From Candidatus Cloacimonadales bacterium (GTDB taxonomy: Bacteria; Cloacimonadota; Cloacimonadia; Cloacimonadales; DAONDQ01): a stretch of 64,000 nucleotides of DNA. The first letter of the stretch is position 1. Each line of letters begins with the position of its first letter. The stretch is from contig OY759316.1 in assembly GCA_963662275.1 (NCBI GenBank), positions 3,936,001 to 4,000,000 on the forward strand, read 5' to 3'. The translations under genes were made by a program, and so were the position numbers. Below are positions 35,520-44,821 of the stretch, piece by piece. The notes under the pieces are model-generated. The model had not been told where the DNA came from and did no database searches. It saw only the letters and a program-made list of their open reading frames with translations.

Positions 35520-37079
35520 ATGACAAAAGAACAAGAAAGAGATGAGTTACACCGCGCTATATGGCAGATTGCCACGGATTTACGGGGCAGCGTTGACGGA
35601 TGGGATTTCAAATCCTATGTGCTGGGTATGTTATTTTACAGATTTATTTCAGAGAACCTGACTCTATTTTTAAACAAGGAAGAACAGCGTACAGGAAACA
35701 AAGACTTTAATTATGCTGAATTATCTGACAAGGAAGCCGAGTTTGGCAGGGCTGATACGGTAAAAGAAAAAGGCTTTTATGTCCTCCCCTCCGAGCTGTT
35801 TTTTAATGTTCGCAAAAACGCAAAGAACGATGCTGATCTGAATGAAACACTGAGTAGGATTTTTACCAACATTGAAAACTCCGCTAAAGGGACCGAGAGC
35901 GAAAATGATTTGAAGGGTTTGTTTGATGATATAGACCTTAACAGCAACAAATTGGGAGCCACTGTACAAAAAAGAAATGAAAAGCTGGTAAAGATATTGG
36001 ATGCCATTGGTGGACTAAATCTGGGTGATTATCAGGATAATACGAATGATACTTTCGGTGATGCCTACGAATTTCTGATGACCATGTATGCCAGTAATGC
36101 CGGTAAATCAGGGGGAGAATTCTTTACGCCCCAGGAAGTTTCCGAATTACTCGCTGAAATGGCAGTAGTCGGCAAAAAAGAAGTCAATAAGGTCTATGAC
36201 CCTGCCTGCGGTTCCGGTTCACTACTGCTCAAATTTGCTAAAGTACTGGGCAAAGAAAATGTCCGTCAGGGATTTTATGGACAAGAGATAAATCTTTCCA
36301 CCTACAATCTGTGCCGCATCAATATGTTTCTGCACGATGTCAACTTTGAGAAGTTCGATATCGCTCATGGTGATACTTTAATGGATCCTAAACACTGGGA
36401 TGATGAGCCGTTTGATGCCATTGTTTCCAATCCTCCCTACTCCATCCACTGGGATGGAGATGCCAACCCCTTATTGATAAATGATCCCCGTTTTTCACCT
36501 GCAGGAGTGCTTGCTCCCAAAAGCAAAGCCGACCTTGCTTTTACCATGCACATGCTTTCCTGGCTTTCGACATCCGGCACTGCGGCTATTGTTGAATTCC
36601 CTGGAGTTTTGTATCGTGGTGGGGCTGAACAGAAGATTCGCAAATACCTAATCGACAACAATTACATTGATACGGTTATTCAACTCCCGCCTGATTTGTT
36701 CTTTGGAACTACCATTGCCACCTGTATTATCGTGATTAAAAAGAGCAAAAAAGACAATGCCACCCTGTTTATTGATGCCTCTGCCGAGTTTGTACGGGGA
36801 GGCAACAAAAACAAGCTTTCTGAAGCCAACCGCAAACGTATCCTGAATGCCTTTATTCAGCGTCAAGACGAAGACTACTTTACCAGGCTGGTTCCCAATA
36901 GCGAGATTGCAGAGAATGAGTACAATATCGCAGTAAGCTCTTTTGTAATTCGGGAAGATACAAGTGAGGATGTCGATATAGAACAGCTCAATGCCCATAT
37001 TGCAGAGATTGTGATTAGACAGAACCATCTGCGCACTGCTATTGATGAGATAGTAGCTGATTTGGAAGGTACTGTATGA
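35520..37079 (+). CDS. hsdM: Type I restriction-modification methyltransferase subunit (type IC-like)
   Basis: IW.IA.DLRGSVDGWDFK, GKSGGEFFTPQEVS, YDPACGSGSLL and NPPY. Confidence 0.96.
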   Translation: MTKEQERDELHRAIWQIATDLRGSVDGWDFKSYVLGMLFYRFISENLTLFLNKEEQRTGNKDFNYAELSDKEAEFGRADTVKEKGFYVLPSELFFNVRKNAKNDADLNETLSRIFTNIENSAKGTESENDLKGLFDDIDLNSNKLGATVQKRNEKLVKILDAIGGLNLGDYQDNTNDTFGDAYEFLMTMYASNAGKSGGEFFTPQEVSELLAEMAVVGKKEVNKVYDPACGSGSLLLKFAKVLGKENVRQGFYGQEINLSTYNLCRINMFLHDVNFEKFDIAHGDTLMDPKHWDDEPFDAIVSNPPYSIHWDGDANPLLINDPRFSPAGVLAPKSKADLAFTMHMLSWLSTSGTAAIVEFPGVLYRGGAEQKIRKYLIDNNYIDTVIQLPPDLFFGTTIATCIIVIKKSKKDNATLFIDASAEFVRGGNKNKLSEANRKRILNAFIQRQDEDYFTRLVPNSEIAENEYNIAVSSFVIREDTSEDVDIEQLNAHIAEIVIRQNHLRTAIDEIVADLEGTV

Positions 37080-37101: not shown

Positions 37102-38331
37102 ATGAACACGATAGATGGATTGATACAAGAACTATGTCCAGATGGAGTGGAGTGGAATACTCTGGGGGAGGCATGTCAATATATTTCAGCTGGAGGAGAT
37201 TTACCCAATAATTATAAAAAAGGTCAGACAATTCCTTCAGCAGACTTTCCATATCCAATTTTTTCGAATGGCACAGAAAAAAATGCTCTTTATGGTTATA
37301 CGGATAGCTTTAAGATTGATGCTGAAGCTGTAACTATTTCTGCACGTGGTACGATAGGATATCATACTGTACGTAATCCAAAATTTACACCAATCGTTCG
37401 ACTGATAACCTTGATCCCTAAGCAAGAGTATATTATTGCTAAGTACCTAAATTATGTTTTAGATATTACAATCATAGGCTCTTCTGGAGGAAGTATTCCT
37501 CAATTGACTGTGCCAAATGTTAAGAAAATCTCTATCCCCATCCCCCCTCTGCCTATTCAGCAGGAGATTGTCAGCATACTCGACAAGTTTACTAAGCTGG
37601 AGGCGGAGCTGGAGGCGGAGCTGGAGGCGGAGCTGGAGGCCCGCAAAAAACAGTATGAATTTTACCGTAATCAATTACTGACACCCGCTGATGTTGATGG
37701 CAAATGGTATTTGAATGGTAAAGACGTAATATGGGTTGAAATTGAAGAAGTTTTCCATCTACGAAATGGATATACTCCATCAAAAACAAGAAGTGATTTT
37801 TGGACAAACGGAAAGATCCCTTGGTTTCGATTAGAAGACATAAGAGAAAACGGAAGAATTTTGTCAGATTCTATACAGCATATTACTTCGGATGCTATTA
37901 AGGGAAAAGGACTATTCCCAGCTAATTCAATCATACTAACTACATCGGCAACAATAGGAGAGCATGCGCTAATTACAATGGCTTTTTTAGCGAATCAGAG
38001 ATTTACATGTATGTCAGTAAAACAAGCTTATTATTCAAAACTTAACGTGTTCTATATGCAATACTACATGTATGTTGTTGATGAGTGGTGTAAAAATAAT
38101 ATTAACGTATCAGGTTTTGCAAGCGTAGATATGGACAAATTTCGGAAACTAAAAATCCCTATCCCACCTCTTGACGAACAGGAGCGTATTGTAACCATAT
38201 TGGATAAATTCGATGCTTTGGTCAATGACATATCATTCGGTCTTCCTGCCGAAATAGAAGCCAGAAGAAAGCAATATGAGTACTATCGGAAAAAGCTGCT
38301 GACCTTCAAAAACATCTCAGATGTTTCATGA
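37102..38331 (+). CDS. hsdS: Type I restriction-modification specificity subunit
   Basis: Two TRDs, each followed by IPIPPL..Q..IV.ILDKF. Central AELEAELEAELEARKKQY. Confidence 0.95.
   Translation: MNTIDGLIQELCPDGVEWNTLGEACQYISAGGDLPNNYKKGQTIPSADFPYPIFSNGTEKNALYGYTDSFKIDAEAVTISARGTIGYHTVRNPKFTPIVRLITLIPKQEYIIAKYLNYVLDITIIGSSGGSIPQLTVPNVKKISIPIPPLPIQQEIVSILDKFTKLEAELEAELEAELEARKKQYEFYRNQLLTPADVDGKWYLNGKDVIWVEIEEVFHLRNGYTPSKTRSDFWTNGKIPWFRLEDIRENGRILSDSIQHITSDAIKGKGLFPANSIILTTSATIGEHALITMAFLANQRFTCMSVKQAYYSKLNVFYMQYYMYVVDEWCKNNINVSGFASVDMDKFRKLKIPIPPLDEQERIVTILDKFDALVNDISFGLPAEIEARRKQYEYYRKKLLTFKNISDVS
37597..37640 (+). repeat. 12-bp tandem repeat CTGGAGGCGGAG x3 plus a partial copy in hsdS
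   Basis: Perfect units at 37597, 37609 and 37621, partial at 37633. Encodes LEAE repeats. Confidence 0.95.
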
Positions 38332-38338
38332 GGTAAAG

Positions 38339-41300
38339 ATGAAATATGATATCATAGCTCAAAACCCGGAAAGTACTGTTGTCGCAGAATACAATTCACC
38401 TTCTATACGAGAGACAGCTTACCAATCTGAAGCTGACTTGGAAAAGGATTTTGTTCAATTGTTAAAGGCACAGGCTTATGAATATCTGCCAATCACTTCT
38501 GAAAGTGGGCTGATTGCCAATCTGCGAAAACAACTGGAAATCCTAAACAACTACTCTTTTTCTGATAAAGAATGGAAACAATTGTTCGAAACCAAAATTG
38601 CCAACCTTAACAATGGCATTGAAGAAAAAACCACGATCCTTCAAGAGGACTTTATCCAGTTATTAACCTGTGACAATGGGGTAACGAAAAACATCTATTT
38701 ACTGGATAAAGCTAATATTCATAATAACCGTTTGCAGGTGATTAATCAATATTCTGTTGATGGCGGTCAGCGTGCCAACCGCTATGATGCTACGATATTG
38801 GTAAACGGTATTCCTATGGTTCACCTGGAGCTTAAAAAACGAGGTGTGGATATAAAAGAGGCGTTTAACCAGATCAACCGTTATAATCGCGAATCCTTCT
38901 GGGCAGGGAGTGGACTCTTTGAGTATATCCAGATATTTGTTATTTCTAACGGCACTCATACCAAATATTACAGTAATACAACCCGATTCACTCATATAAA
39001 AGAACAAAGTGACGGAAAAGTAAAAAAGGGGAAGCGCACAAGCAACAGCTTTGAGTTTACTTCCTGGTGGGCTGATGGCAATAATAAACCTATCACAGAT
39101 TTGATGGATTTTGGAAGAACTTTTTTTGCCAAACATACCTTGTTAAACCTGCTGACGAAATATTGTGTTTTTACTTCTGATAAACTACTGCTTGCCATGC
39201 GTCCCTACCAAATTGTGGCAACTGAGCGTATCTTGAGAAGAATTGAAATTGCACATAATTATAAACAATACGGTAATGTTGATGGTGGCGGATATATCTG
39301 GCATACAACAGGCAGCGGAAAGACACTGACTTCCTTTAAAACTGCTCAGATTGCATGCAAACTGCCATATATAGATAAGGTGCTGTTTGTAGTTGATAGA
39401 AAAGACCTTGATTATCAGACAATGTTAGAATATGATAAATTTGAGAAAGGAGCTGCGAATAGTAATACAAGTACTGCAATATTAAAAAAACAGCTTGAAG
39501 ATATCAACGCCAAGATCATCATTACCACGATACAGAAGCTATCTGTCCTGATAAAAAAAGAAAAATATCATCCTGTCTATAATCAGCATGTAGTGATTAT
39601 CTTTGATGAGTGCCATCGTTCCCAGTTTGGTGATATGCACAATGCAATTACAAAGAGCTTTAAGAAATATCATCTGTTTGGATTTACAGGCACTCCCATA
39701 TTTGCAGTTAATGCAAGTAGAAACTTGAATTCTCAATTATGTACAACAGAACAAGCATTTGGTGAAAAGCTTCATACTTATACCATCGTAGATGCCATTA
39801 TGGATAAGAACGTTCTTCCCTTCCGTATAGATTATATCAGCACAATGAAGGAGCAGGAAGATATTGCCGACACTAAAGTATGGGACATTGATAGAGAAAG
39901 AGCACTGGCAGCCCCTGCACGTGTAACTAACATCGTGAAGTATATTCTTGAACATTTTGATCAGAAGACCAAACGGAATAGCTATTATCAGCTCAAGGAA
40001 AGACGTTTGGCGGGCTTCAATGCTATCTTTGCCACAGCATCGATTGACATTGCGAAGAAATACTATTCCGAATTTCAAAAACAGATGACTGGATTACCAA
40101 GCGATAAACAATTAAAAATTGCCACAATTTACAGCTTTGGAGTCAATGAAGACGAGGTAGAGATAGAGGGTATAATCGAGGATGAAAACCTGGAGGATAC
40201 AAGCAGATTGGATAAAAGCTCAAGGGATTTCCTGGAATCTGCAATAGAGGACTATAATAAACTCTTCAGAACAAACTTCGATACTTCCAGCGATAAGTTT
40301 CAAAACTATTATAAAGATGTCTCCCAAAGAGTAAAAGACCGTGAAATTGACTTGCTTCTAGTCGTAAATATGTTCCTTACAGGTTTTGATGCTACAACAC
40401 TCAATACACTCTGGGTGGATAAGAATCTACGTTTACATGGTCTTTTACAGGCATATTCACGTACAAACCGTATTCTCAATACGATCAAAACCTTCGGGAA
40501 TATCGTATGTTTCCGAAATTTAGAGAAAGCAACCAATGAGAGTATAGCCCTATTTGGAGATAAGGAAGCAAGTGGGATAGTCCTGCTTAAGACCTTTGAT
40601 GAATACTACCATGGATATCATTCTGGAGAGAAAACAATACCCGGCTATGTGGAATTAGTGGGTGAACTGCTGGAAAAATATCCCGTTGGAGCAAGAATCA
40701 TCGGTGAACAGAATCAAAAGGATTTTATCAAACTGTATGGTACTATCTTGAAATTACGCAATATCCTTTCATCTTTTGATGAGTTTATCGGACTTGAAAT
40801 CCTGACGGAAAGAGATGTCCAGGACTATCATAGCATGTATATCGATCTCTACAATGAATTCCGAGGAAAGAACAAAGGCGATGCAGAAAACGTAAATGAC
40901 GACATTGTGTTTGAAATGGAATTGATCAAGCAAGTAGAGATAAACATTGATTACATTTTAATGCTGATCAAGAAATATCATGAAGGACACCAAAAGAATA
41001 AAGAGATAGTAATCAGTATAAACAAAGCAATTGATTCCAGCGTAGAATTACGTAACAAAAAAGACCTAATAGACCTATTCATAGCCAGCTTAAATCCCTC
41101 AACAGATGTGGATAAAGATTGGCATGAATTTGTAGAAGCAAAAAAAATAGAGGAATTGAATAAAATAATAGAAGATGAGAACCTAGACAAAGAAGAAACA
41201 TATAAATTCATCGCAAATGCATTCAGAGATGGATTCGTACAAGAATCAGGCACTGCAATCACAAAGGTCTTACCTCCTATTTCTAAATTCACACCAACTG

Positions 41301-41392
41301 GTGAACGCAGTATAAAGAAAGCATCTGTTCTGGAGAGATTTAAAGCCTTCTTTAATAGGTTTTGGGATATTTCGGGAAGTAACACGCTATGA
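38339..41392 (+). CDS. hsdR: Type I restriction endonuclease subunit R
   Basis: RYD..ILVNGIP.VHLELKK, WHTTGSGKT, DECHRSQFG, GFTGTP, MFLTGFD and QAYSRTNR. Start taken at ATG 38339. Confidence 0.96.
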   Translation: MKYDIIAQNPESTVVAEYNSPSIRETAYQSEADLEKDFVQLLKAQAYEYLPITSESGLIANLRKQLEILNNYSFSDKEWKQLFETKIANLNNGIEEKTTILQEDFIQLLTCDNGVTKNIYLLDKANIHNNRLQVINQYSVDGGQRANRYDATILVNGIPMVHLELKKRGVDIKEAFNQINRYNRESFWAGSGLFEYIQIFVISNGTHTKYYSNTTRFTHIKEQSDGKVKKGKRTSNSFEFTSWWADGNNKPITDLMDFGRTFFAKHTLLNLLTKYCVFTSDKLLLAMRPYQIVATERILRRIEIAHNYKQYGNVDGGGYIWHTTGSGKTLTSFKTAQIACKLPYIDKVLFVVDRKDLDYQTMLEYDKFEKGAANSNTSTAILKKQLEDINAKIIITTIQKLSVLIKKEKYHPVYNQHVVIIFDECHRSQFGDMHNAITKSFKKYHLFGFTGTPIFAVNASRNLNSQLCTTEQAFGEKLHTYTIVDAIMDKNVLPFRIDYISTMKEQEDIADTKVWDIDRERALAAPARVTNIVKYILEHFDQKTKRNSYYQLKERRLAGFNAIFATASIDIAKKYYSEFQKQMTGLPSDKQLKIATIYSFGVNEDEVEIEGIIEDENLEDTSRLDKSSRDFLESAIEDYNKLFRTNFDTSSDKFQNYYKDVSQRVKDREIDLLLVVNMFLTGFDATTLNTLWVDKNLRLHGLLQAYSRTNRILNTIKTFGNIVCFRNLEKATNESIALFGDKEASGIVLLKTFDEYYHGYHSGEKTIPGYVELVGELLEKYPVGARIIGEQNQKDFIKLYGTILKLRNILSSFDEFIGLEILTERDVQDYHSMYIDLYNEFRGKNKGDAENVNDDIVFEMELIKQVEINIDYILMLIKKYHEGHQKNKEIVISINKAIDSSVELRNKKDLIDLFIASLNPSTDVDKDWHEFVEAKKIEELNKIIEDENLDKEETYKFIANAFRDGFVQESGTAITKVLPPISKFTPTGERSIKKASVLERFKAFFNRFWDISGSNTL

Positions 41393-41514
41393 ATATGCGG
41401 CTTATAATCATTACCTGGAGAAGATTAGGGAAATGGGATTTTATTGTCGCACATGACATGTCAAAACTAAGCATTATAAGAACTCAATGACTGATACTAT
41501 GAAAGGAGGATATC

Positions 41515-42465
41515 GTGAAAAATCTCTTTATTGTTGATGGAGCCTCGGGAGCAGGTAAATTTGAGATGGTAAAATATGTATCCGAGTTTAAAAATGATTG
41601 CTCATATGTCCAGAAGTATACAACCAGAAAAACTCGCAATTACGAGAAGAATGCTCGGTTGATTCTTGATCTTATTTTTGTAGATGACGATACGAAATTT
41701 CAGGAGATGAAATTTGATTACAAATATAGGTATGCAGGAAATATGTATGGCGTGTATAAAAAAGATATTTTAGCAGCAATGTCTATGAGTAATAACGTGT
41801 TTATTATAATCAGAAATTATGAAGTAATCAATTCATTAGCCCATGATTTTTCGTATGTTAATGTCATCCCATTATTTGTACATACTTGTGATAATGTAAT
41901 TGAAAAATGGATGAAGGAAAAAAAAGATATTACTCCAGAACAGATTAACGAAGCACTTGATAGAAATCTGTTAGCTTATGCTGATTATCATAAAAAACCC
42001 AATATTTACAAAGAAATTATTATTAATAATTCTGACAAAAAAGACCTTTTTACTACATGTGATAAGTTACTTGAAAAATACTACTACTCTTCTTGTATTG
42101 ATGATAAACTGATCTTTATTTTTATGTCATTCAGATCGGAGAACAAACATATGCTAGATTATCTGGAGAGTATGAAAAGAGCTGTGAAAAAAATCGATTC
42201 TTCATACAGATGTATTAATCTCGAAGATATACATGGTTCAAGTTATAAAATCTCTGAAGAAGCAATTTCGAACATGATTCGTTGTAGATTAGCGATTGTG
42301 GATTTATCAGATGCAAGACCAGATGTTTATTATGAATTAGGGTATCTTCATGCGATAAAGAAAAAAACTATTATCACAGCTATTGACGGAACGAATCTAC
42401 CTTTTTACCCAAAAGAATTCAAGGTCGTTTTTACGAAAATGCAACTGATCTGCAGAAGAAGTTAG
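41515..42465 (+). CDS. Guanylate-kinase-like plus nucleoside 2-deoxyribosyltransferase-like fusion, probably frameshifted near the 3' end (intact end 42503)
   Basis: GASGAGK, KYTTR..R.YE and Y.Y.GN.YG in the kinase half. IFIFMSF...AIVDLS..RPDVYYELGY.HA in the second half. Confidence 0.72.
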   Translation: MKNLFIVDGASGAGKFEMVKYVSEFKNDCSYVQKYTTRKTRNYEKNARLILDLIFVDDDTKFQEMKFDYKYRYAGNMYGVYKKDILAAMSMSNNVFIIIRNYEVINSLAHDFSYVNVIPLFVHTCDNVIEKWMKEKKDITPEQINEALDRNLLAYADYHKKPNIYKEIIINNSDKKDLFTTCDKLLEKYYYSSCIDDKLIFIFMSFRSENKHMLDYLESMKRAVKKIDSSYRCINLEDIHGSSYKISEEAISNMIRCRLAIVDLSDARPDVYYELGYLHAIKKKTIITAIDGTNLPFYPKEFKVVFTKMQLICRRS

Positions 42466-42622
42466 TAATTGAACTTTCAGCATTCCTAACAGAGAATATG
42501 TAATTGAAGTGAGATTCAACATATTTGAAAGGAGAAGGCATTACTACGGATTAACATTACCTTTATCCAGAATTGATAAAAAAGAAGAATCTCACCAATT
42601 GCTACACAGCAAAGGAGTATCT

Positions 42623-43066
42623 ATGAAAAAGGATGAACTCTCAATATACGAAAGCCCAGCCGTAATCAAGCACTTGGAGATTTTGCAGGATATAATTACG
42701 AGAATGGCTGGGAATGGTGCAGCCTGTAAAACCTGGGCAATACCAGTTATCACCGGCATCATAGCATTCTCGGTGGAAAAACAGTGTATTCCAATCTGGG
42801 TTAGTCTTATTCCCGCGATTATGTTTTTTGTCTTAGATTCATTCTATCATGGGTTAGAAAGGCATTTCATTGACACCCAAAAAGAATTTGTAGCAAAATT
42901 GTCGGATAATACCTTACAATTAAATGATATCTATGTTATAAAATCAATACGATACTTAATTATCCATTTGAAATTCCTGTTTAGAGGGATGTTATCTTTC
43001 GCTACAGGACTTGTCTATATTCCCATTATTGCACTAATATTATGGCTGTGGAAGACAGGCTACTAA
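42623..43066 (+). CDS. Small membrane protein of a family I recall next to TIR defence genes
   Basis: AAGGAG RBS before ATG 42623. HLEILQDIITRMAGN...KTWA, F..LDSFY..LER.F and three hydrophobic segments. Confidence 0.7.
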   Translation: MKKDELSIYESPAVIKHLEILQDIITRMAGNGAACKTWAIPVITGIIAFSVEKQCIPIWVSLIPAIMFFVLDSFYHGLERHFIDTQKEFVAKLSDNTLQLNDIYVIKSIRYLIIHLKFLFRGMLSFATGLVYIPIIALILWLWKTGY

Positions 43067-43085
43067 ACACACAAAAGAGACGATC

Positions 43086-43193
43086 ATGCCTAAAAGACAA
43101 GTTTTCTATCGGAGGTAATTGTGTATAGAGGATTTAATATCAAAGACATCAAACTCGAAGACAAGTACATCGAAGCTGGTAAAAACCAACAAT
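43086..43193 (+). pseudogene. Fused 5' remnants of probable TIR-domain genes (MPKRQVFY... and MYRGFNI...)
   Basis: A 10-codon ORF at 43086-43118, then GGAGGT plus GTG 43121, whose frame runs into an IS-like end. Confidence 0.45.
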
Positions 43194-43285
43194 TGAATAA
43201 TATTCTTAATGAGAGCCACTTGTACGGAGTTTTAGAGCCACGTCTTCGCTAAAATAGAGCCACCTAATTCGAAAGTGAGAGCCAC
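43194..43285. mobile_element. Isolated IS21-family-like terminal sequence
   Basis: Starts with 5'-TG and carries AGAGCCAC four times at exact 22-bp spacing (43212, 43234, 43256, 43278). No istA/istB present. Confidence 0.6.
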
Positions 43286-43499
43286 AATTCAATTTAAGAC
43301 TGAAGATTAAATATTAAGAATTGGCATTGAAGAAGCTTATAGCTTGTAGGGATAGCGGAAGGTGGCAGAGACCAGGGAACAGTTCAGAGCAGAGCAGACT
43401 TAGAGTTCAAAATTCTTCTTGACTCTTTCATTTGAGGAATAAACTATACGAATTATGTAAATGCATGGGTAAATACGAAACATATCTAGGGGTAGAGAA

Positions 43500-43820
43500 A
43501 TGGCAAAGAATCAAATAAAAGAGCCCTCCATTCAATACAAGCATAGTTGTACACTAGAATACGGACTCGAAAAGCTTATCAATTATGATTTAAAATCCCC
43601 AATCAATTACACTTTGGAATGGGATGATCAGTATTATATTGCTGAGTCAACGGATTTTCCTATCTATGCCATTGGAGATACAGAGCTTGAAGCGATTGAA
43701 GCTTTGAAATTGGAAATTGAGAACCTCTATTCTGAATTACAAGAAAATGAGAAGTTATCTGATGAATGGGCAAAATACAAATTTATGTTACAAAGTATAA
43801 TAATAAAGCACTGTGAATAA
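43500..43820 (+). CDS. HicB-like antitoxin
   Basis: Acidic 106-aa protein with LEWDDQYYIAES.DFPIYAIGDTELEAIE.LK.EI (partial RNase H fold). Confidence 0.6.
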   Translation: MAKNQIKEPSIQYKHSCTLEYGLEKLINYDLKSPINYTLEWDDQYYIAESTDFPIYAIGDTELEAIEALKLEIENLYSELQENEKLSDEWAKYKFMLQSIIIKHCE

Positions 43821-44085
43821 CGCTCAATTTAGCACGAATCAGATACTGAAAGTATGCCAGGATAAGCTTGAAATTGAATTCAAGAGTACCAAAGAGTATA
43901 ATGGTTGGTATATGTTAGATGGGAAATGTGTTTGTCGTATTACAATCCCGAAGGGAAGAAAAGAAGTGCCTCTCAAAACTTATACATGTATGGCTAAACA
44001 ACTGAAACTCACTACATGGCAATTCGATATTTTACTTCAATGTACATTAACAAGAAAGGATATGAGTCGATTATTCGTAGTCTGA
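43813..44085 (+). CDS. HicA-like toxin (divergent, possible 3' frameshift)
   Basis: Basic 90-aa protein overlapping the antitoxin stop, with DGK...RITIP.G.KEV......MAKQLKL...F..L..C.L. Confidence 0.55.
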   Translation: MNNAQFSTNQILKVCQDKLEIEFKSTKEYNGWYMLDGKCVCRITIPKGRKEVPLKTYTCMAKQLKLTTWQFDILLQCTLTRKDMSRLFVV

Positions 44086-44140: not shown

Positions 44141-44546
44141 ATGTCACTCCTTGCGGGGTTCTAATGGTATTGTGGGTTTCTCCCTGTAGTTCCATTTCAT
44201 TCCACTACAGGTTATGATCTACCATCTCTTCGAGATTAAGAGAAGACGCAAAGAATTTAAGATTGAAAATTGAACACTTCGACGGGCTCAGTGCAAGGAT
44301 TGTGATTTGGCAGAAAAGCAGATCAGAACTAGCTCTCCCTTAATCCCTCCCTTTACAAATGGGAGGGAAATTCCAGAATTATTTTTCATTTTTTAAAAAT
44401 AAATCGAAATGCTCCCTCCTATATATATATATGAGGGCTCTGTTTTAAACGAGTTTAAAACTTCGCTAATTAAAAATTAAAAGTTAAAAATTAGCAGAGC
44501 AGAACTAACGCCCCCTTTATCCCCCTCTTTGCAAAATTGGGGGAGG
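44141..44546. repeat. Cluster of several REP-like palindromes
   Basis: CCTGTAG..CTACAGG, CTTCGACGGGCTCAG, CCCTCCCTTTACAAATGGGAGGG (44345) and CCCCCTCTTTGCAAAATTGGGGG. Confidence 0.55.
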
Positions 44547-44821
44547 CTGATCGAGGAAGACAATCATTGTAGAAGGTACTATAAGAGTTTTTCGGGTGGA
44601 TGAAATCCAAATGTTCTATTCAGTGAAGAAAGCATTGCAGTATGTCATGAAAAAGATAAAAGCCAAAGATCAGCATCTAGTGAATTATTTAACTACCATC
44701 ATTCATTTGCATAAAGACGAGGAGCCAACACCTGAAGTTGTTGCTACGATCTTTTCATAGATAAAGCTTGACTGATGACATAATGGGATTAGTATTAATA
44801 GTAAATTATTGAGAGGTGGGT

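Follow-up and report, generated by a model that had tools for sequence, protein, structure and literature searches.

Among the described anti-phage systems, those of the Thoeris types are the closest to the locus examined here. According to the main text of the preprint of Yirmiya et al. (bioRxiv 10.64898/2025.12.03.692087), Thoeris-type systems make use of about 30 different effectors, and several of the signals and activation mechanisms are stated there to be unknown. The same text describes type V as a TIR protein with ThsF, a DUF2270 effector with three transmembrane (TM) segments, type VII as a TIR protein with the SLATT effector ThsH, and type VIII as a TIR protein with ThsI, a 'CMP hydrolase'-TPR effector (CMP, cytidine monophosphate); canonical cyclic ADP-ribose (cADPR) triggers both type VII and type VIII, and rare operons hold both effectors. 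The DNA analysed in this work, referred to as the window, is a stretch of 64,000 nucleotides from Candidatus Cloacimonadales bacterium (assembly GCA_963662275.1, contig OY759316.1, positions 3,936,001 to 4,000,000 of the forward strand). In it, a gene for a guanylate kinase-like (GMK) domain fused to a nucleoside deoxyribosyltransferase-like (NDT) domain, called here the fusion or GMK-NDT, is followed by a gene for a small membrane protein and by remnants of two TIR genes. It is probable that positions 41515-43295 are what is left of a Thoeris-type anti-phage system with TIR signalling, lying behind a type I restriction-modification (R-M) operon, with the fusion as its signal-driven second effector. 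The parts of this locus are the following:

41515-42465, forward strand: open reading frame (ORF) of the GMK-NDT fusion, GTG start, 316 amino acids (aa).
41515-42090, forward strand: guanylate-kinase-like P-loop domain of the fusion, residues 1-192, with the Walker A motif GASGAGKF.
42103-42465, forward strand: NDT/DNPH1/MilB-like domain of the fusion, residues 197-316, with the motif DLSDARPDVYYELGY; its final 13 residues are out of frame.
42428-42432, forward strand: five consecutive T, the site at which the fusion goes out of frame; homologues stay in one frame here.
42429-42503, forward strand: displaced 3' end of the fusion, 24 codons and a stop.
42623-43066, forward strand: three-TM membrane protein of 147 aa, PADLOC family PDC-M50A, intact and with all family-invariant residues present.
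43086-43118, forward strand: ThsB-type TIR stub of 10 codons (MPKRQVFY, RR, stop), about 150 codons missing.
43121-43189, forward strand: second ThsB-type TIR stub, the first 23 codons of the gene; the ORF continues into insertion sequence (IS) DNA to 43252.
43190-43295, no strand assigned: IS21-family remnant, its right end joined to its left end and its interior gone, which cuts the second TIR gene.

The membrane gene places the locus within a family of candidate defence systems. All four PADLOC models of PDC-M50A (PDC presumably standing for phage defence candidate) match the 147-aa protein, PDLC04686 with an E value of 4.8e-20 and the three others with values from 1e-15 to 2e-6, which agrees with the original prediction, made from the letters of the window, that this protein is effector-like. 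Hydropathy gives hydrophobic stretches at residues 33-51, 53-78 and 118-145, and the model of the protein is all-helical and confident (predicted local distance difference test, pLDDT, 89.2). Its homologues number 23, of which 22 share 54-74% identity with it and one 29%, and in an alignment of 55 sequences the residues Q22, R27, N31, K36, W38, D72 and E79 are invariant. No Pfam family matched the protein, the 30 nearest ESM Atlas clusters share none, and a Foldseek search of the model against the PDB gave no match at E<=0.001. Scattered weak Pfam matches among the 55 members (Ac76 in seven, DUF3278 in four, DUF2270 in two) were not used as evidence.

The two stubs that follow bear out the earlier description of TIR-like remnants behind the membrane protein, and both are of ThsB type. 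The first opens with the letters ATG CCT AAA AGA CAA GTT TTC TAT, the conserved start of TIR genes of 161-177 aa at loci L084 and L088; the intact genes there match ThsB_TIR (PF08937) at 1e-26 to 1e-28 and PDC-M50B at 1e-64. Given that the match of the eight residues MPKRQVFY is weak on its own (E 0.10), the identity of this stub is drawn from its position and from the gene order. The second stub matches the gene of 251 aa at L084 (tblastn E 3.6e-5), which in its intact form is ThsB1 of PADLOC (PDLC00430, 1e-74 to 1e-77). The window carries the stubs of the same two types of TIR gene, in the same order past the membrane gene, as its relatives do.

The end sequence of the IS that cuts the second TIR gene, about 75 bp long, occurs in at least nine copies in the genome at 87-99%, and its word depth in sequencing runs is about nine times that of the flanks. 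A full IS21-family copy (L192, G000:C1:2148200-2151300) spans about 2.6 kb, with 32-nt inverted ends and ORFs of 528 and 248 aa that were read by eye as IstA/IstB-like. There are several such full copies, seen as pairs of ends about 2.57 kb apart near 2.15, 2.22 and 2.62 Mb. PF08937, the ThsB-type TIR family, has no match in the complete genome of 4.38 Mb. Judged by sequence, the locus is non-functional as a TIR pathway, and the membrane gene is its sole intact part. Phage assays after repair of the 3' frameshift of the fusion, which had been proposed for this DNA, would fall short for this reason, since with both TIR genes reduced to stubs the mending of the fusion alone would restore no system.

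What the intact form of the locus may have looked like can be seen from the relatives of the membrane gene. Its profile retrieved 90 loci, of which 80 are metagenomic and 10 lie on viral contigs; 83 of the 90 have the gene called. In 56 of these 83 loci the membrane gene is the immediate neighbour of a ThsB-like TIR gene, and in 57 a gene of this type lies within two genes of it, with matches to ThsB_TIR (PF08937) at 1e-21 to 1e-28, to PDC-M50B at 1e-60 to 1e-65 and to ThsB1 (PDLC00430) at 1e-74 to 1e-77. In 20 of the 83, an NDT-like domain behind a Zn-ribbon N-terminus adjoins the membrane gene on its upstream side, with a gap of 9-30 nt, and is matched at about 1e-20 by positions 190-320 of the fusion profile. 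In the clade nearest to the window (56-74% identity), the order is an optional gene of 222 aa, the Zn-ribbon-NDT gene, the membrane protein gene and one to three TIR genes, and this set of genes is often found on viral contigs, next to genes for terminase and head proteins. Of 31 related genomes, G023 alone carries a relative of the membrane gene (69% DNA identity), which again has a Zn-ribbon-NDT gene upstream and a TIR gene downstream. A blastn comparison of positions 35-46 kb of the window with all fetched loci returned short patches only and no close DNA relative.

Two further observations were made in these neighbourhoods. A conserved gene of about 222 aa (MSYDRRK...) precedes the Zn-ribbon-NDT or the membrane gene at L083, L085, L092, L093, L096, L101 and L165; it has no Pfam or PADLOC match and is missing from the window, and it may be a further component of the system. 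At L081 (1856-7297), a PDC-M50-type cluster, with a membrane protein 74% identical to that of the window and three TIR genes, stands directly after a type I hsdR with just a 62-aa ORF between them, so that the placement behind hsdR recurs.

The fusion lies where these relatives carry the Zn-ribbon-NDT gene. A word-indexed search for it found 22 relatives, nearly all of them fused and about 320-375 aa long, and an exhaustive profile search returned 232 members at E<=1e-30 out of 1.84 billion representatives. Both domains are spanned by 77 of the 150 best representatives (a hand count that includes the window), the remainder being either fragments or proteins of about 190-200 aa with the kinase-like part only. 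When one genome per species was scanned (185,579 species genomes), 80 loci were kept, 11 with the full fusion and 69 with the NDT-like domain alone or in other architectures. Judged from these sequence searches, the kinase-glycosidase fusion appears to be rare and patchy across phyla. Across the 77 members K15, K34 and Y71 are invariant, and Y78 is found in 76, E274 in 74, G276 in 72, D263 in 71, N270 in 69 and R147 in 66.

The C-terminal half of the fusion matches PF05014 in Pfam with an E value of 1.8e-4, at 22.1 bits against a gathering score of 28.8. A search of the PDB with the single sequence of this domain gave nothing meaningful, unlike a profile built from 66 NDT-like domains, which matches DNPH1/Rcl (2klh) at E 3.7e-6 and places the YELG motif on the GYELG of DNPH1. 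By structural comparison (VIA), residues 197-316 superpose on the CMP N-glycosidase MilB (4ohr_A) with Z 12.7 and a root-mean-square deviation (rmsd) of 2.6 over 117 aligned residues, and on NDTs with Z 10.9 (6evs_B) and 10.6 (7m5h_B); the STING-associated TIR domain 7un8_A, with Z 11.5, falls in the same range. In DNPH1, the Glu of the YELG-type motif is the nucleophile. The equivalent residue of the fusion, E274, is invariant in the 66-domain alignment. The Asp of DNPH1 that we take to be a further active-site residue, and whose position differs between PDB variants, maps onto a non-conserved column of the NDT-like domain alignment. It is clear from these comparisons that the C-terminal domain has the NDT/DNPH1/MilB fold and has retained a Glu of the catalytic type. 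A second NDT-like gene, weakly related, was noticed about 21 kb before the window (L191, G000:C1:3913325-3916600, minus strand, 324 aa); it has the motif NANVYMEYG near its N-terminus, matches the profile at E 1.6e-5, and its C-terminal half is of no recognised kind.

For the N-terminal half, the NCBIfam guanylate kinase model TIGR03263 gives an E value of 3.3e-11, the guanylate kinases of the PDB match residues 6-174 at E 3e-6 by sequence, and the PHROG family annotated as guanylate kinase (phrog_1815) matches at 1e-13; a second PHROG family that matches the fusion, phrog_3634, is of unknown function. PF00625 is not listed for the window fusion at E<=1 in the Pfam scan, and it is precomputed for 12 of the 22 homologues. 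In the AlphaFold2 model of the fusion (pLDDT 86.8), residues 1-192 match the guanylate kinases 2anb and 2an9 by Foldseek with E 2e-11 and TM-scores (target) of 0.71-0.78, and by VIA they match 2qor_A with Z 19.6 and an rmsd of 2.9 over 183 aligned residues. As modelled, residues 1-192 thus have the guanylate kinase fold. Profile and structure searches of both halves agree with the original prediction that a P-loop kinase domain for nucleoside monophosphates (NMPs) is fused here to a Rossmann-like NDT domain.

The fusion keeps the guanylate kinase motifs of the P-loop Lys, TTRxxRxxE and YG. Its Walker A motif, GASGAGKF, departs from the pattern GxxGxGK[S/T], and from this it had been proposed that the kinase might be a binding sensor only. 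The GKF is indeed real in the window; the position after the P-loop Lys nonetheless reads GKS or GKT in 20 of 20 close homologues and is Ser or Thr in 59 of 77 members of the wider family, so that GKF is an oddity of the decayed window copy and no family trait. Because the P-loop Lys is invariant and Ser or Thr follows it in most of the family, catalysis by the kinase domain may have been retained. The pocket for the nucleotide base is another matter. The residues of yeast guanylate kinase that bind guanosine monophosphate (GMP) we take to be S34, R38, R41, Y50, E69 and Y78. Aligned to the yeast enzyme, the fusion family retains R38, R41, E44 and Y78, and has an invariant K34 in place of S34, Leu (L53) in place of Y50 and Tyr or Phe in place of E69. 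Given that these presumed guanine-binding positions are replaced, the pocket of the fusion would be a remodelled one and no GMP pocket.

These results bear on the reading of the fusion as a salvage enzyme, in which a guanylate kinase and a DNPH1-like nucleotide hydrolase would be joined for ordinary nucleotide turnover. Each half does resemble metabolic enzymes, and in one archaeal locus (L049, below) the gene stands among housekeeping genes. Such a role is nevertheless very improbable, given the rare and patchy spread of the family (11 loci out of the 80 kept from 185,579 species genomes; 232 members at E<=1e-30 among 1.84 billion representatives), its neighbours, which are mostly defence genes, and the finding of a broken copy in an otherwise complete genome. 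The replacement of the presumed guanine-binding residues argues in the same direction, as do the equivalog cut-offs for guanylate kinase, which the fusion misses by far (43.1 against 160.45 bits for TIGR03263 and 28.9 against 263 for NF011325).

The GTG start of the fusion gene is placed five bases past AAAGGAGG, and the gene is broken near its other end. Frame 1 terminates in ...KEFKVVFTKMQLICRRS, and the neighbouring frame reads FYENATDLQKKLVIELSAFLTENM, with the stop at 42501-42503; this displaced reading fits the C-termini of the homologues, whose tails have the consensus FYxxxxxLxxxLxxEL. Logan contigs of 5627 nt from each of three public runs in two studies (X1 and X2 from one sample, X3 from the other study) cover positions 41400-43237 with no differences and no gaps. 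One of these three runs may be the source of the window genome; a further run, X4, has no coverage of 42296-42487 and is uninformative on the frameshift. Since identical contigs come from two studies, the frameshift and the GKF codon are in the DNA and are not the slip of one assembly, and the 3' frameshift that had been noted earlier is thus confirmed by the T run, by the homologue tails in the next frame and by the contigs. The window copy also departs from its family at conserved sites, with F16 (Ser or Thr in 59 of 77), A147 (Arg in 66 of 77) and D270 (Asn in 69 of 77). It deviates in 7 of 46 conserved columns, the most in a comparison with 20 close homologues (0-6). In a wider set, where the others deviate in 0-7 of 22 conserved columns, the window copy has four deviations and is no outlier, and relaxed selection was found unconvincing from substitutions alone because the window lies within this range.

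The role of the NDT-like domain can be approached from the other proteins that carry it. Of 51 such proteins that were scanned, all of them 200 aa or longer, seven had TPR-S, three STALD-SLOG, three LDcluster4-SLOG and two Card1-type CARF, and one each had Cap17-like_N, Mrr, a CAP12-type TIR, an AAA lid and a weak match to NAD-kinase. In the proteins with TPR-S, the NDT domain is N-terminal and homologous to that of the window (tblastn E 1e-7 to 1e-16), and their genes adjoin TIR and patatin genes at L016 and L023. Since MilB, the best structural match, is a CMP N-glycosidase, these NDT and TPR-S proteins may be read, by analogy, as ThsI-like. The recurrent pairing with nucleotide-sensor domains and the placement in TIR operons make it most likely that the NDT-like domain is an effector. 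The original prediction of a nucleotide-centred defence module is supported by these findings; the probable organising principle of the locus, TIR signalling of Thoeris type, had gone unnoticed in it.

Besides the window, the full fusion was found at 12 loci, 11 in genomes and one viral, with these gene contexts:

L032: QueC, ThsB TIR, a SLATT_1/3 protein and the fusion.
L004: a 4-TM protein, the fusion, a TIR-TM protein, a NUDIX protein of 415 aa, a GMK-like protein and Mrr.
L002: a GT4-conflict glycosyltransferase, a NUDIX protein of 414 aa, two GMK-like genes and the fusion.
L006 and L007: NUDIX, the fusion, a NUDIX protein of 445 aa and a P-loop protein of 455 aa.
L001: the fusion beside GajA/GajB (Gabija).
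L008: the fusion beside FRG and HEC-02 genes.
L005: the fusion near an integrase.
L179: an intact fusion alone on an IMG/VR viral contig, between genes of tail-fibre size.
L049: archaeal, the fusion between polyprenyl synthase and pyruvate phosphate dikinase genes.
L003 and L037: contexts that are uninformative.

Several results weigh against an assignment of the locus to Thoeris-type signalling with the fusion as its second effector. The PDC-M50A membrane gene is present in none of these 12 loci, and GMK-NDT in none of the 83 membrane-gene loci. A TIR gene is nearby in 2 of the 12 loci, NUDIX and extra GMK-like genes are found in four, and elsewhere the fusion stands alone by Gabija, in a phage tail-gene region or among archaeal housekeeping genes. 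In a quick tree, the NDT domain of the window falls next to that of L001 within a clade of five GMK-fused domains (Shimodaira-Hasegawa-like approximate likelihood ratio test, SH-aLRT, 98), and the Zn-ribbon-NDT domains form a separate clade (SH-aLRT 99) far from it, which indicates that the window NDT domain is no derivative of the usual Zn-ribbon partner. In 26 of the 83 membrane loci, many of them short contigs, there is no TIR gene within two genes. As to the membrane protein, none of its 55 members has SLATT at E<=1 in Pfam, and DUF2270 (PF10028) is found only weakly (E about 0.022), in the two members mentioned above. The genome also holds two TIR_2-domain loci, more than 2 Mb distant, so that it cannot be described as free of TIR genes altogether.

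Given that the pairing of fusion and membrane gene in the window is unique among the loci examined, it could reflect chance adjacency in a defence island. The fusion would then be an enzyme that acts by itself, as a one-gene defence or by depleting nucleotides; it would have inserted between hsdR and a PDC-M50 system to which it is unrelated and which was already decaying, without ever having acted together with the TIR genes or the membrane protein. The absence of either gene from the loci of the other, the separate clades of the tree and the solitary fusions by Gabija (L001), near FRG and HEC-02 genes (L008) and in the phage tail-gene region (L179) are all what such an arrangement would give, and the PDC-M50-type cluster at L081 follows hsdR directly with no NDT gene between them. 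It is nonetheless an unlikely explanation, though one to be taken seriously, because the place of the fusion, immediately upstream and in the same orientation, is exactly the one held by an NDT-domain gene in 20 of the 83 membrane loci. GMK-NDT is moreover present in operons with TIR and SLATT (L032) and with TIR-TM (L004), and its NDT-like domain family recurs as the partner of sensor domains in TIR operons. The conserved linkage to the membrane gene on which the original prediction depended is lacking for the GMK-NDT family; what is linked to the membrane gene is only the NDT-like domain, by way of the Zn-ribbon-NDT gene.

The intact fusion on the viral contig L179 and the matches to phrog_1815 and phrog_3634 could also be taken as signs of a phage origin, in which the fusion would destroy or rework the ADP-ribose signals made by TIR proteins, or reshape nucleotide pools, as counter-defence or phage metabolism. 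According to the portion of Iyer et al. (2022, PMC9503650) considered here, SLOG-guanylate kinase fusions occur sporadically in phages. The NUDIX-rich neighbourhoods of L002, L004, L006 and L007 would likewise suit the processing of ADP-ribose derivatives. This role is improbable, given that most loci of the fusion are chromosomal defence islands (R-M, Gabija, Mrr, HEC-02, FRG) and that sensor domains of the sort usual in effectors are found on the related NDT-domain proteins; defence genes borne by prophages are common, so that a viral contig leaves the direction undecided.

An arrangement of another kind was observed at L002, L004, L006, L007 and L045, where GMK-NDT, one to three GMK-like P-loop genes and a protein of 414-446 aa with a central NUDIX domain recur together; the GT4-conflict glycosyltransferase of L002 and the TIR-TM gene of L004 are extras to this cluster. 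The cluster may represent a conflict system in its own right that processes nucleotides.

For the reading preferred here, the wreck of a Thoeris-type system, a mechanism can be proposed by analogy with the published Thoeris types. In the intact relatives, the ThsB-like TIR proteins would sense infection and make a signal derived from ADP-ribose, which would activate two effectors encoded alongside the TIR genes. The first, the three-TM PDC-M50A protein, would breach or depolarise the membrane. The second, a soluble NDT/DNPH1/MilB-like protein, would cleave the N-glycosidic bond of a nucleotide or of nicotinamide adenine dinucleotide (NAD+) by means of the YELG Glu. The slot of this second effector is filled by Zn-ribbon-NDT in most of the relatives, and the window would carry in it a GMK-fused member of a different and rare lineage that has replaced the usual partner. 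The guanylate-kinase-like domain would most likely bind the signal or another nucleotide and gate the glycosidase; as a second possibility, it would be an active kinase by which the substrate of the glycosidase is supplied or removed. Ligand sensing is favoured because the kinase-like domain stands N-terminal of the glycosidase, in the position taken elsewhere by SLOG and CARF sensors, and because its pocket is remodelled. The signal, the substrates, the gating and the cooperation of the kinase-glycosidase gene with the membrane and TIR genes are what we infer; they are proposed for a locus whose domains, gene linkages and decay are shown by the analysis.

More tentatively, the GMK-NDT fusion may be an undescribed effector family of immunity centred on TIR and ADP-ribose, in which a remodelled NMP kinase, as signal receptor or as coupled enzyme, controls or feeds an N-glycosidase that depends on its Glu and depletes the pool of a nucleotide or of NAD+, and which has been reused in at least three types of system (with TIR and membrane genes, with NUDIX and extra GMK-like genes, and standalone). 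If this is true, a MilB-like glycosidase whose sensor slot is taken by a domain of kinase fold would offer a new way to read or act on nucleotide signals. The neighbourhoods with NUDIX and several kinases hint at a small nucleotide-processing pathway that is undescribed in the literature searched. The locus also illustrates how such a system dies, with the toxic membrane effector intact and the signal makers deleted, one of them at the end of an IS. For the window genome the practical meaning is small, since the system is non-functional.

The R-M operon in front of the fusion consists of three genes:

35520-37079, forward strand: hsdM-like type I methyltransferase, 519 aa, first gene of the operon, with an NPPY-type motif seen by eye.
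37102-38331, forward strand: hsdS-like specificity gene, 409 aa, with a central LEAE-type repeat seen by eye.
38321-41392, forward strand: hsdR, R subunit of type I restriction, 1023 aa, with the Pfam matches HSDR_N (5.7e-47), SWI2_SNF2 (1.9e-54), T1R_D3-like (1.7e-59) and EcoR124_C (7.1e-66).

Around 37600-37650, the hsdS-like gene carries a tandem repeat of the four residues LEAE in about four copies. In some type I enzymes, repeats of this kind determine how long the spacer of the recognition site is, and they can change through slippage. Past the decayed module, two small overlapping ORFs on the forward strand, 43500-43820 (106 aa) and 43813-44085 (90 aa), have a layout like that of toxin-antitoxin pairs; neither has a significant family match, the best being a weak one to PHD_like antitoxin (E 0.08). 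Further on, at about 44300-44560, an AT-rich spacer holds two similar GC-rich motifs about 170 bp apart (...CCCTCCCTTTACAAATGGGAGGG... and ...CCCCCTCTTTGCAAAATTGGGGGAGG...), each capable of forming a hairpin, which may be copies of a small repeat element.

When the locus is set against known systems, an NDT-like domain as defence effector is found in Retron-Eco1 (Ec86). No ORF of the size of a reverse transcriptase is present among the ORFs of 36-48 kb, with no search made for the RNA. The PDC-M50 system of PADLOC has as component A the small membrane protein, which is intact in the window, and as component B the ThsB-like TIR protein, which is intact in the relatives and left in the window as stubs of 10 and 23 codons only; its models match neither the upstream X-NDT genes of the sub-clade nor the GMK-NDT of the window. 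A full-text literature search returned no paper that uses the name PDC-M50. In that literature the fusion is likewise not described as a defence component, the nearest mention being that of the SLOG-guanylate kinase fusions of phages, with the limit that the supplementary tables of the Thoeris preprint, which were outside reach, may list it; the main text of that preprint never mentions kinase, guanylate or deoxyribosyltransferase.

With type V Thoeris, the locus shares a small protein of three membrane helices encoded beside a ThsB TIR; in the window protein the invariant basic residues R27 and K36 are placed just before and at the start of the first membrane helix. DUF2270 genes were found in none of 232 genomes of the phylum of the window, of the three genomes behind fetched loci and of 401 genomes of another order. 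For the NDT-like domain, a further likeness is given by the NIR (DUF4062) domain of Avs2, Vulcan and Vesta, a defence effector domain with a TIR/MilB-like fold and an essential Glu that, in the part of the source consulted, is an NADase and was formerly called 'CMP hydrolase' (bioRxiv 10.64898/2026.09.04.749371). Given that a 'CMP hydrolase' has proved to be an NADase, the candidate substrates of the window domain span NMPs, deoxynucleoside monophosphates (dNMPs) and NAD+. PF13271 (DUF4062) itself is unreported for the window fusion at E<=1 and for the 51 NDT-domain relatives at E<=1e-4.

It is with types VII and VIII that the locus shares its logic, namely TIR genes, a small membrane effector and a MilB/CMP-hydrolase-like effector in one operon. 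A kinship with ThsH and ThsI would be one read from their described architecture only. ThsI of type VIII carries TPR on its effector, whereas the fusion has a guanylate-kinase-like domain and no TPR found by Pfam, and ThsH of type VII has a SLATT domain, whereas the membrane protein of the window has no detectable one. The parts of the locus and its logic are thus of known kinds, and the GMK-NDT fusion in a defence setting is the element that appears to be new.

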